Part shown: one piece after another, positions 26,791-33,788 of the stretch
Layout of the letters: each line of letters opens with the position of its first letter
Position numbering within the stretch: the stretch's first letter is position 1
Origin: Eledone cirrhosa
Lineage: Eukaryota
Assembly (NCBI GenBank): GCA_964016885.1
Contig: OZ024755.1
Location: forward strand, 28,148,001-28,212,000
Direction of reading: 5' to 3'
DNA: 64,000 bases
Position numbers and translations under genes: made by a program
The notes under the pieces: model-generated
Seen by the model: the letters and a program-made list of their open reading frames with translations, nothing else
Databases searched by the model: none
What the model was told of the DNA's origin: nothing

Positions 26791-26982
26791 GCGAGGGAAA
26801 AGTGGTAAGGAACCAGGTGGACCATAACGCACCAAAGTACTCAATACTTAGGGTAGTAGAGTGGGTAATAGGAGTAAGTAAGACCCCGACGGCTGAGCTC
26901 AAGCCGTTTCGACGTCTGTACAGTACAGAATTAGCCGTCGAAACGGCTTGAGCTCAGCCGTCGGGGTCTTACTTACTCCTAT
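26791..26982. mobile_element. Fold-back Penelope-like pLTR remnant (family A)
   Basis: Perfect 47-bp arms at 26868-26914 and 26936-26982; (TA)n on both sides; hammerhead 3' half GAAAC-GGCT..AGCC-GTC. Confidence 0.7.
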
Positions 26983-27069
26983 ATATATATATATATATAT
27001 ATATATATATATATATATATATATATATATATATGTGTGTGTGTGTGTATATGTGTGTGTGGTGGGAAT

Positions 27070-27240
27070 ATCAGTCCTAAATAACGGAGCGGGTATCTCT
27101 GTTCGTAAGCTTCATAGAAGTTCATGTATTCGCTGTTGAGAACATTTCTGTTCGCAGATGATTGCGATTGTTTTGCCCACGCACGCGGCTAACAAACCCC
27201 TTCGTATTAGCATGTAACGCATTTTCATTGGACAACGGAA
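27070..27240 (+). mobile_element. Degenerate LINE reverse-transcriptase fragment (RTE-like)
   Basis: Reads TFLFADDCDCFAH, the RT catalytic motif in the form LFADDC, followed out of frame by LACNAFSL. Confidence 0.55.
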
Positions 27241-27248
27241 GAAAAAAA

Positions 27249-27429
27249 TTGGCAATATCGGTAGAGCGTCAGACACCATGCTTTGCAGCATAGTGTTATG
27301 GCCCTTTACGTTCTGATTTCAAATCCTACCGAGATTAACTTTGCCTTTCATCCTTACGGGGTCGATAAGATAAAGCACCAGTAATGCACTGGGAGTAATT
27401 GCTGGCCTTGTGCCAAAATTAGAAACAAT
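27249..27429 (+). mobile_element. SINE S1
   Basis: Near full-length match to other copies. Confidence 0.88.
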
Positions 27430-27989
27430 ATATATATGTATATATGTATAGAGAGAGATTGTCTACTAGCATTTCAAGGGCTCCGTCGAGCCGCGGATTA
27501 TAGAGTCGGGTAATATCGATACTGATCGAACCTTGAGCTGATCAGTGGCGAAACGCGCTTCACCAACCAATAAATGTAATGAAGGAGTAACCAATCGTCC
27601 TTGTTATCTTTTCACTATAATACACTCTGTCTAGCTCTACACCTCGACGCTGAAGTGAACCTAAACATCGAGTGCTCACCCGGGTGAACCTACAGTAACT
27701 CCAAGTTACACTCCCTGGATATATATATGAAGTATTTCCGTAGAAAAGGTAAAGGATGGGAGAGTGCTCTATGTATGCAACAGAGCTGTCTGATGAACGA
27801 TTTCAGACGTCTTTGCTGAGCTCGCCTGTCTTCGTGAAACCTTTGGTAAATGGAATAATTGTATTGTGTTGTTTATTACATAATTATATATATATATATA
27901 TATATATATATATATATATATATATATATATATATATATATATATATATATATATATATATATATATATATATATATATGTGTGTTAGT

Positions 27990-28280
27990 GTACTTGGGCC
28001 GAGGGAAATAAAGTGTTTTGTTCAAGAACGCAACGAACCGCCTATCACAGGATTCTCACAATCATATGGTTGTGAGTGAGAATCCTGGAATAGGCGGTTC
28101 GTTGCGTTCTTGAACAAACACTTTATTTCATTCTGCTCAAGTACGCCCAGCTGAGTTGTGACGTCAGTGTTGCCAAGCTATATCGTCCATTGACTTTCCC
28201 TTGGAAAACATCGGTGGCATGGTGGTGGAGCGGGGAATATTAGCATGCATGGGCCTTCCACAAACACACATTGCTGAAGA
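27990..28280 (+). mobile_element. SINE (third family) with 5' fold-back inversion
   Basis: ~68-bp arms spanning 27990-28144, centred on the hairpin ctcacaatcatatggttgtgag; SINE-like body gttcttgaacaaacactttatttca ... cccagctg continues to ~28280. Confidence 0.65.
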
Positions 28281-29330
28281 CATATACATATACATATATA
28301 TACATATACATATATATACATATATATATATATATAAATACACATATACATATATATATATATATATATATATATATCTATATATATATATATATATACA
28401 TATAAATATATAAATATAAATATATATATATATAAATATATATAAATATAAATATATATATAAATATATATATACATATATATATATATATATAAATATA
28501 TATATATATATATATATATATATATATATATATATATATATATATATATATATATATATATATATATATATAAATATAAAACATGAGAAGAAAGAAGAAT
28601 ACTTCGTGGTTGCACATGGGTTACATATGATAAAAATAGTTCTTCGTCAGTGATTTTCCAACCATCATTGGTATTTCATCGCATTAAAAATCATATACCT
28701 CTGGTTGGTGCGAGCAATAACTAAAAAAATTGATTGGGACCAGTAAATCGCGTAAAGCGAGGGGGACAAGTGAACAACATAGAAGGATAAAAGCAAACCA
28801 AAGAAAGGAAAAAAACAAGCAACATGGTTGCCCTGGTCAGCATAAGCTGGGTGGGTTTCATGAGCGAAAGGTACAGACGTCCGACGTGAGTGAGATGTAA
28901 GCAAGAAGAGACCCATTGTAAGCTAAACGGGAGGAAGTGAGAAGGGGAGAAACAGAGAGTGAGTGAGTGGAAGTGCGAGGAAGCAGCCAGTCGATATATA
29001 TATATATATATATATATATATATATATATATATATATATATATATATATATATATATATATATATATATATATATATATATATATACATATAAATATATA
29101 TATATATATATACATATAAATATATATATATATACATAAATATATATATATATATATATACATATATATACATATACATATATACAAATATATACATATA
29201 CATATATACAATATATATATATATATATATATATATATATATATATATATATATATATATATATATATATATATTTCGTTTCTGAATTTGTTTAGCAAGA
29301 TTCTTTATCTGAAATCGTGTGTTGAAACCG

Positions 29331-30767: not shown

Positions 30768-30886
30768 ATCTCTTGTTAATCTATAAAGCAAATAGCAAGA
30801 TTACAGCTATATCTACCCCTGAGGGAGTCGTAGGGGCACCATATTGTCATACGGCGTGTTTCTAAAGCATTATTTTAAACCCGAGA

Positions 30887-31050
30887 GTGAATTGGCAGTA
30901 TCGGTAGAGGTTTGGTGCCATGCTTTTTAGCATAGTTACGTCCTTTTACGGTCTGAGTCCAAATCCCGTCGAGGTTAACGTTGCCTTTAAAGTACCAGTA
31001 ATGTACTGGGTAATTGCTGGCCTTGTGCCAAAAAGTAGAAACAATTATTA
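30887..31050 (+). mobile_element. SINE S1 with internal deletion of the core
   Basis: gttgcctttaaagtaccag: the segment catccttacggggtcgataaaat is missing. Confidence 0.85.
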
Positions 31051-31402
31051 CTTTGGTCCTCGGTATCACCACCATTATCCCCCTCATATGCTATTATAGT
31101 ATTTTATTCAATTATGTTGTTTTTTCTAATTATATATTTTATGATTCATATTGCTATTAAGTAGTACGTATTTTAGAAAAGAAAGGTTTCAGGAACCAGC
31201 TCTGTGTATTAGTTAAACAGGAATTGATGGGCGCAGTTATTAATAACATGTGTTGCGCCCCCTATAAAAGAAAACTAGAGCAGGGAGTAGCAATAGAGAA
31301 CTATACATTGGAAAGGGAGTCAGGCCATCCAATTAGAACAGAGGAACATAATCGGAATTATCGTTTACAACGTATTTAGGAAGAGAATGTCCTATAACAC
31401 TT

Positions 31403-31705
31403 CATTGCATGGGCAACCTGCGGCCCGCGAATCTTTCTGAATGGCTCGCCTAAGTCACCTAAGTGAAATCTTTCTGATTTTTTAAACCCCAACTTTTCAG
31501 TCGTAATTTATCTTTCTATTATTTTTACCAACGAGGAAAACAATGTGTACAAATTCTGAAGAAACAAATCCAAACAACCTGAGTTACCGCCATTTTTTTT
31601 TTTTAAATGTGTGGGCACGAATGTAAATAAGCGCTTGCGACCTGCCTGATGATGAGCCATATCTCACGTGACCCGCTTCTCAAAAAAAGTTGCCGCCTAT
31701 GCCCG
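31403..31705. mobile_element. Non-autonomous hAT (Charlie/Buster-like) MITE
   Basis: Left end catgggcaacctgcggcccgcg, right end gtgacccgc..aaaaaaagttgccgcctatgccc; degenerate TIRs and subterminal ggcccgc motifs typical of hAT-Charlie elements. Confidence 0.6.
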
Positions 31706-31975
31706 GTCTAGGTTACCAGATGGCCAACCTGTCAACAAAGCTACACTTCCCATCCATAACTGATAGAAACATGTGAAGTCTATTCGATAAGTAGATATGT
31801 AATTGTTTTCAGTGTCACACTCTGCTGCAAACAGTTGATGGAGGTCTGTGGCACCTAACTCCCCAGTCTGCCGCATCTCGCGGTCAACGATACAGAGTTT
31901 TACGCAAAATAATGTTATTTTCAATCGCTTTCGTTTTATTTGCGAATAATAAGAATTCATCACTTTATCATTGTT

Positions 31976-32428
31976 GGTGAATTGGAAGGATTGATAAAGC
32001 GTTGGACACCATGCTTTGCGGCGTAACGTTACGTCCCTTTACGTTCTGAGTTCAAATCCCGCAGAGGTTAGTTTTACTTTTCATCCTTACGGGGTCGATT
32101 AAATAAAATGCCAGTTAAGCACTCACTTGTGTCTAATCCACATTCCCCTCCCCCAAAATTGCCGGCCTTGTACCTAAATCAGAAACCATTATTATTATGC
32201 ATAGTAAAAATTACAGTAGGGTGAATTGGTAACATTTGCAGAGCCATGTTATGTTACATATTGTTTGGTCTTTTAACATTCTGAGTTTAAATCCCAGCGA
32301 GATTAGTTTTGCATTTCTTCTTTACGAGCTCAATAAATTAAAGTACCAGTAAGACATTTGGGTCGATTTAGTCGACTTTCCTTTTGCCTTCAAATTGTTG
32401 GTCATGTGCCAAATGTAGAAATAATTAT
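31976..32428 (+). mobile_element. Two adjacent older S1-related SINE copies
   Basis: 31976-32192 and 32219-32428, each with B-box (ctgagttcaaatccc / ctgagtttaaatccc) and a diverged core. Confidence 0.75.
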
Positions 32429-33582
32429 TTATAGTTGTAACAGAAGCAGTTTTTGTTTTAAAGTTTGTGTCTCTCTGTTGTTATTATCTCTTACTATCAT
32501 CCTTTTTAATTATATCATTGGTTGTTTTGTGATTTTGTAGTTTTATTTGGTATTGTTTCATTTCTACTTTCTTTCTATTAACGTGTACTTGTATGCTACA
32601 GTATCGTTGAAATTGGCGTCACCTCCCATGTTTTCATTGGCTCCGGACAATATTAGGCAGACATTGCCTTTCCTTTTATATTTTCGATCGATCCATTTTG
32701 ATTAAAGATTAAGATTTCTTGTTATTGATGTTGACATTAATATCTTCGTGTGTGTGTGTGTGTGTGATTGTGTATATGTGTGATTATATTTTCCAAATAA
32801 GTGTTTAGTTGTGTGTCTTTGTAATTGTGTATGAACAAAACCACAGAAGTTCCAGATAACTTAATCATATTGCACTGTATACAACCCATATACAAACAAT
32901 GAATTCGCAGCAAAATGTGTTGATCTGGAAGAAGGCAAATGAACCTAGTCTAAGCGAACTATACTTAAACCACTAGCAACAATAATGAAATTGCGTGGAA
33001 ACAGTAGACATCAAAATGATATATATTATTCTAAATGTATTATATCATACACGTCTTTAGTGATTAAAACAAAAATGCTTTTATTTGTTTATAAAAATAG
33101 CGTATGATGCAGATACAAAAAATGACATCTCAAATGAGCTAGTCTCCCATATCTAAGACTGCATTTAACGCAGTTATATATTCAAATATTTAAGTTAGTA
33201 ATGATATATTTATACAATAAAATTGAAAAACCTATACAGACAAAATTATCAATTATAGATAATCCTTTTACAAGACATATCTAATGAGGTTTTGAAGTTT
33301 GTATAACAGCAATACGTATCATATACACTACCGTATTGGCAATGTAGTTCAAGAGATATAATTAATAAATATATAATGGTTGGTATAGAAAAATACAATT
33401 TTCTATGGAAGAAATACTTCCGAAAGCTCCTCGGCATGTACTTCAATAGTCAAGTTACGTTTATTATATTAAATACCGTTGACGTTAAAAGTCAGTGTTG
33501 TAGCAATCCTGAAATACTGAAACGTTTGGTAATATGTGTGTAACTATGTTCTACTATTATATATATATCTCTCTGTATATAT

Positions 33583-33788
33583 AACGGAGGAAATGTGGTA
33601 AGGAACCAGGTGGACCATAACGCACCAAAGTACTCAATACTTAGGGTAGTAGAGTGGGTAATAGGAACGAGTAGGACCCCGACGGCTGAGCTCAAGCCGT
33701 TTCGACGGCTAATTCTGGACTAATTTTAGTCCAGAATTAGCCGTCGAAACGGCTTGAGCTCAGCCGTCGGGGTCCTACTCGTTCCTAT
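33583..33788. mobile_element. Fold-back Penelope-like pLTR remnant (family A)
   Basis: Perfect 63-bp arms at 33661-33723 and 33726-33788; same unique segment as 26791-26867; TA flanks. Confidence 0.72.

Follow-up and report, generated by a model that had tools for sequence, protein, structure and literature searches.

The window analysed here is a stretch of 64,000 nucleotides from Eledone cirrhosa (assembly GCA_964016885.1, contig OZ024755.1, forward-strand positions 28,148,001 to 28,212,000; all positions below count from its first letter). It consists of AT-rich animal-type DNA, dense in microsatellites, and contains two copies of a hairpin-forming insert of ~200 bp, copy 1 (26791–26982) and copy 2 (33583–33788), both in contact with (TA)n runs. 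We consider these copies to be likely dead, 5′-truncated insertions of a Penelope-like retroelement (PLE), presumably the products of two reverse transcriptions, begun at fixed sites 78 nt apart and joined head to head.

The anatomy of the inserts can be read directly from the two copies. Copy 1 is flanked by (TA)n on its left (the target, 26732–26790) and on its right (26983–27034). It is composed of a 77-nt tail (26791–26867, minus strand), a left arm that is perfect over 47 bp (26868–26914, minus strand), a 7-nt centre mirroring the start of the right arm (26915–26921) and a right arm of 61 nt (26922–26982, plus strand). The perfect arms (26868–26914 and 26936–26982, 47 bp each) lie 21 nt apart, and copy 1 is best read as a 54-bp hairpin with a 1-nt centre, whose left side lacks 6 nt between the arm and the 7-nt segment. 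In copy 2, a 78-nt tail (33583–33660, minus strand), whose outer end coincides with one of the fixed ends of the family and borders on (TA)n, is followed by the left arm (33661–33723, minus strand), a TT centre (33724–33725) and the right arm (33726–33788, plus strand), the two arms matching perfectly over 63 bp each. On the minus strand, the segment of 77 or 78 nt that the copies share outside their arms directly prolongs the left arm and thus forms its tail. We take the minus strand as the RNA-sense strand of tail and left arm. Each element is two pieces of one sequence placed head to head, one ending 78 nt farther out than the other.

The initial annotation of this DNA described a shared segment (given there as ~75 bp), perfect inverted repeats of 47 and 63 bp, a common last base before (TA)n, and four outer-arm differences between copies that leave the arms exact within each copy. 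All of this holds, with the segment lengths corrected and one more site added near the centre. The right arms of copies 1 and 2 differ at five positions in 61 nt, each of them mirrored in the other arm of the same copy, and (TA)n begins after the identical base in both. If the arms had come from unrelated family members, the chance of their being identical would be ~0.5% and ~0.2% for the two copies, so both arms of one copy derive from one source. The folding z-scores are −17.8 and −16.5, and none of 200 shuffles folded equally well.

Each arm carries a motif resembling half of a hammerhead ribozyme: a C and GAAA are followed by a helix of 6 bp, whose loop has 7 nt, and this in turn by GUC. 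In the right arm of copy 1, GAAA lies at 26940–26943, helix III at 26943–26961 and the putative cleavage C at 26962. The corresponding positions in copy 2 are 33746–33749, 33749–33767 (near-palindromic) and 33768, followed by the putative 3′ strand of helix I at 33769–33774. Read from the sequence, helix III is an 18-nt palindrome plus one extra base; a palindromic helix III is named as a trait of PLE hammerheads in the available text of PMC4209133. Among the 40 of 91 variant rows listed from the reads, GAAA and GUC are free of variants, the outer pair of helix III varies (32% and 13%), two CpG changes yield G–U, and no compensatory change in helix III is seen. A motif of GAAA, 6-bp helix and U–H occurs in 4 of 5000 arm shuffles (a post hoc test), and shuffled whole windows contain a mean of 3.3 such motifs, so the hammerhead match is suggestive only. 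The arm is plausibly the 3′ half of a type I hammerhead. The sole pairing partners present for helices I and II lie in the inverted arm itself, the loose ends of reads being too mixed to supply others. As they stand, copies 1 and 2 are not ribozymes, since the CUGANGA core is absent.

In addition to the two hairpins, the window contains four single-sided relatives that the initial annotation had not listed. An arm-only relative of a second subfamily (45808–45883, plus strand) sits in (TA)n, starts 13 nt upstream of GAAA and has no inverted partner. Three relatives consist of tail only: one at 54574–54642 (plus strand), with (TA)n at both ends, and two at 61661–61708 and 61810–61860 (minus strand). 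The latter two share an identical break and are probably one event, duplicated locally. All six window pieces of the hairpin family contact (TA)n.

A second, older family shows the same layout of tail plus inverted arm at 20333–20530 and 33808–33990, the latter 20 bp to the right of copy 2, with homologous tails that start at (TA)n. By eye, one arm of 20333–20530 appears to retain a near-complete hammerhead-like motif, in which a core longer by one base is accompanied by helix II, GAAA and a palindromic helix III, and the other arm seems to end in loop II. This family lends indirect support to the hammerhead reading of copies 1 and 2. Other hammerhead-like pieces also occur. A stretch of ~230 bp at 54330–54562 (minus strand), belonging to a different family, has CTGATGA and then GAAA and is a candidate minimal hammerhead; a short (TA)n connects it with the tail-only relative at 54574–54642. 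A fold-back at 61967–62099 adjoins (TA)n; its arms each contain GAAA, and a core-like word with a single deviating base stands at its turn. Further long fold-backs lie at 27990–28144, 52694–52973, 2773–2822, 25808–25873 and 49208–49245.

The family was followed in sequencing reads with the left half of copy 2 (33520–33725, 206 nt) as reference, which leaves the centres of both window copies outside the comparison. Four runs were used: X1 (contigs), X4, X5 and X19 (raw restriction-site-associated DNA (RAD) reads, n = 12,467,656), of which X1 and X19 belong to different studies. The data sets listed as containing the sequence include no RNA run, which says nothing for or against expression. The half element is matched by 20650 contigs of X1 and by 25816 of the 12,467,656 reads of X19 (0.21%), and further by 557 contigs of X4 and only 5 of X5, which comes from another organism. 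Identity of the X19 reads to the half element is 90–95% in 45% of them and 95–99% in 26%. Rough estimates of density range from one piece per 10 kb (window) to one per 90 kb (RAD reads, a biased sample). There are exactly two points at which the reads pass from the element into (TA)n: the outer end of the tail, with 7102 reads that break off before 33576, and the start of the left arm, with 3554 that do so before 33661. With adjoining subfamily ends included, 8565 tail-end reads face 4925 arm-end reads (1.7 to 1). The arm is about as deep as the tail in X1 and X19, not twice as deep. X4, a small contig set from the same organism, departs from X1 and X19 in that its tail is ~3 times as deep as its arm.

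The junctions between the two pieces vary. Thirteen opposite-strand joints are listed, all of them different; 11 occur in raw reads and 6 are common to X1 and X19. Recurrence of joints in two studies and in raw reads shows the inversion to be genomic. The tail-bearing piece measures 40–102 nt in every one of the 13, and the inverted piece starts farther upstream, at 33711–33723, which is 8–20 nt upstream of GAAA; in 8 of the 13 the tail-bearing piece stops before the start of the arm. The inverted piece of these joints presumably ends at 33661. The detection is blind beyond 33725 and under-detects symmetric joints, the best-supported joints are those listed, and four of them share 33667, where a subfamily diverges. 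Within these bounds the stops gather closely upstream of GAAA, a point of the initial annotation that is supported.

Only 418 of the 20650 X1 contigs cross either end of the reference stretch. Among X19 reads that survive a cut at 33714, depth falls from 3723 at 33712 to ~680 at 33723–33725, a drop confounded by the end of the reference and by clipping of the diverged subfamily. Moreover, 1591 reads run at least 30 nt beyond 33711 in non-hairpin sequence. The loose-end consensus behind 33723 (82 and 2 contigs, agreement 0.59 and 0.72) is too mixed for a native upstream reading. A further 7269 reads end at 33714; we rejected this position as a biological end, as AATT is present there and a restriction cut made for the library is the likely cause.

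These observations can be joined into a mechanism. The protein of the element would nick the two strands of a (TA)n run. At one nick, complementary DNA (cDNA) synthesis would be primed from the tail end, giving tail plus arm, and at the other from the arm end, giving the arm only. Both cDNAs would copy the RNA of one source element, and a common source RNA accounts for arms that are identical inside one copy and distinct from those of the other. Both cDNAs would break off early; the arm-end cDNA would typically reach 51–63 nt, which places its stop shortly beyond GAAA within the presumed helix II. The truncated ends would then be joined, sometimes with short fold-back filler as in copy 1, and where just one end was extended, the product would have the tail only or the arm only. 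Because the arms continue across the GUC site, the RNA that served as template was likely uncleaved. In all 13 listed joints the inverted arm extends farther upstream than the tail-bearing piece, which favours two separately primed cDNAs over snap-back of a single one; we read the pieces as primed at two sites, from both target strands. The cluster of stops near helix II may reflect either pausing of the reverse transcriptase (RT) or a short template whose own 5′ end lies there.

The parentage of the family points to PLEs. According to the available text of PMC8557442, PLE insertions often consist of an inverted 5′-truncated copy with a 30–40-bp tail at one end, and several PLE clades favour (TA)n targets. 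The Poseidon protein studied in vitro cuts and extends both strands, starts reverse transcription at two internal sites that bound the tail, is predicted to form a dimer and has uncleaved RNA as its main template (PMC11167929, as far as its available text goes). This published two-start model predicts two fixed ends, arms running through GUC and single-sided copies, as seen here. The link to Penelope-like pseudo-long terminal repeats (pLTRs) made in the initial annotation is thus supported by the inverted truncated copies, the one-sided tail and the (TA)n targets. A C-terminal GIY-YIG fragment at 40833–41132 (minus strand; PF01541, E 4e-6), from a 5′-truncated PLE-like open reading frame (ORF), lies ~7 kb away and is 72% identical to a 772-aa protein that bears an RT. 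No link between this fragment and the hairpin family was found in the window, and the fragment shows only that PLEs inhabit the genome. Pattern scans for the element gave 0 matches in metagenome contigs and 0 in viral contigs. One match in a prokaryote genome was rejected as a chance 21-mer, with no likeness beyond it. No paper on the hairpin family or on PLE twin priming was found in a literature search that left most subscription papers, Repbase and Dfam outside, and the family motifs are in neither the supplements of PMC8557442 nor those of PMC13282606, as far as these were available.

Several results weigh against this reading. The initial annotation had named an intact core and a linked Penelope ORF as tests, and neither turned up in the window, in the loose ends of reads or in peptide searches. 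CUGANGA upstream of the family's GAAA has 0 matches in the window and is also lacking from the 30-nt loose ends of the reads shown. Rfam gives 0 matches at gathering score over the whole window, and the 82 weak matches in 20000–34500 include no hammerhead. The proposed hammerhead half shows GAAA, helix III and GUC, and has neither a core nor an Rfam hammerhead match in the window; the isolated half, moreover, folds as another hairpin in which GAAA is buried. Peptide searches revealed no linked RT or endonuclease (EN) ORF. Two frames are open over 45–46 codons in the element; the peptide searched, of 45 aa in the sense frame, has no homologue, and the 36 variants found among the reads are free of synonymous bias in each of the six frames (10–14 of 36). 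The tail of 77–78 nt exceeds the published PLE length of 30–40 (PMC8557442, in the text available). The centres of the two window copies are nearly perfectly symmetric, and the arms of copy 2 end on one identical base, features that snap-back explains more simply. One-sided deletion of perfect palindromes is a known process and could also yield asymmetric joints.

The strongest competitor, which we hold to be unlikely on balance, is snap-back, the PLE self-priming of Arkhipova 2013: a single cDNA, made across tail and arm, turns back at helix II and serves as its own template, with the asymmetry produced by later central deletion. The near-perfect symmetry of both centres, the fifth arm site mirrored in copy 1 and the placing of one side of all 13 listed joints within a 13-nt zone fit this course. 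Palindromes at inverted PLE junctions have been published, with self-priming proposed from them (PMC3846280, in the text available), so that the snap-back with fixed endpoint suggested by the initial annotation is close to a published proposal. The 7-nt local fold-back in copy 1 is compatible with two-site priming and with snap-back alike. The idea falls short at 33661, where the exact stop is unexplained; the arm-only copy 45808–45883 has an end there too, and the site behaves like an independent start. It also requires an extra deletion for each of the 13 listed joints, in all of which the inverted arm contains sequence absent from the tail-bearing piece, and tail ends exceed arm ends by 1.7 to 1. 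A fixed hairpin that propagates itself, its arms re-copied in every cycle, was the other proposal of the initial annotation. It would explain two copies of the same outline with identical arms inside each, but it is largely refuted and now very improbable: the centres differ, 13 different joints are listed, tail ends outnumber arm ends (8565 vs 4925), single-sided copies exist, and arm depth, which should be double, equals tail depth in X1 and X19 and is lower in X4. An assembly or chimeric-read artefact is scarcely credible. The read comparison covered half of the element rather than the two window centres, and the best-matching runs may be the assembly's own source; set against this, 6 of the 13 listed inverted joints are shared by two studies, raw reads included, copy 1 is asymmetric, and the ends of the copies coincide with the family-wide fixed ends.

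A further possibility is a short non-autonomous PLE derivative with an RNA template of ~140–150 nt whose start lies near helix II. This RNA, devoid of the CUGANGA half, would keep only the two RT starts and be moved in trans; its truncated (TA)n copies may serve as new sources. It fits the stops 8–20 nt upstream of GAAA in the listed inverted joints and 13 nt upstream in the non-inverted copy, the 418 of 20650 X1 contigs that cross a stretch end, the depth drop in X19 from 3723 to ~680, and the core that is nowhere seen; pLTR sequences suffice in cis according to the available text of PMC3846280. That drop, however, is confounded as described above, 1591 reads extend at least 30 nt past 33711 without a hairpin, and an RT pause in the helix would account for the stop cluster equally well. 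We regard this derivative as rather doubtful. Doubtful too, if slightly less so, is its boldest form, in which a non-autonomous Penelope derivative of ~145 nt, devoid of the catalytic half, lies as one piece in every 10–90 kb, with junctions that record two-strand, two-site priming by a PLE dimer and a hard stop at helix II.

Viewed as a sequence feature, the hairpin inserts are likely ordinary retroelement debris, and their architecture is already known from PLEs. How PLEs form their inverted repeats and tails is described as undefined in the available text of PMC8557442. The hairpin family is a good natural data set on this mechanism, since it is short and abundant, has two fixed starts and fits both arms into a single read. 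A table of its junctions would allow two-site priming to be told apart from self-priming, and would reveal whether the RT is held up by the hammerhead helix. Such hairpins also draw sub-threshold matches to microRNA families and could be mis-annotated as microRNAs or as miniature inverted-repeat transposable elements (MITEs).

The remainder of the window is rich in other repeats. A dispersed repeat of ~190 bp, similar in size to a short interspersed nuclear element, is present in more than 15 copies or pieces (4893–5086, 12167–12348, 27248–27425, 30586–30775, 36458–37030, 48382–49679, 51994–52183, 56517–57768 and others). Related fragments of another repeat lie at 22133–22533, 42897–43453, 46790–46971, 50955–51222, 55256–55451 and 58083–58294. 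The frame at 42986–43450 has no Pfam match; by eye it resembles the 3′ end of an ORF from a retrotransposon without long terminal repeats (non-LTR). In addition, an open frame with C2H2 zinc fingers is located at 14034–14417 (plus strand; PF00096, E 2e-11), and a tandem array with a unit of ~33 bp, also a repetitive open frame, occupies about 41400–41600 and 44050–45063.

The proposed course is akin to L1 twin priming, in which the second target strand primes an inverted piece that becomes attached to the truncated first cDNA. The hairpin family differs in that its pieces overlap in sequence and both starts are fixed internal sites instead of a poly(A) tail. A MITE or foldback DNA transposon does not match the family, which has a tail outside the repeat on one side and variable junctions. 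Non-LTR retrozymes are likewise short, non-coding, hammerhead-related and PLE-linked, whereas the hairpin family is non-tandem, inverted and without a complete ribozyme (bioRxiv 10.64898/2026.07.22.740005, in its available text); the window copies contain no tandem units with complete hammerheads. With the type I hammerheads of PLEs, the family shares the C before GAAA, the palindromic helix III and the GUC site. Its helix III of 5–6 bp is longer than in metazoan minimal forms, the core is absent, and native helices I and II are not observed (PMC4209133, where available). The likely placement of the family is among PLEs, above the level of the clade (Neptune, Nematis, Hydra, Poseidon), with a presumed parent element. 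PAc, a Poseidon element of Anolis, differs from the family in that no ORF start or codon signal was found in the arm or tail of the latter, whose helix III is also longer; in PAc, too, two fixed ends downstream of the hammerhead delimit the tail, and copies extend through the cleavage site (PMC11167929, in part). The EN-containing PLE insertions known from the available text of PMC8557442 and PMC3846280 differ from the family, which is only ~200 bp long and has no ORF between its arms, and resemble it in the head-to-head inverted truncated copy, the one-sided tail, the junction palindrome, the (TA)n targets and the very high copy number.

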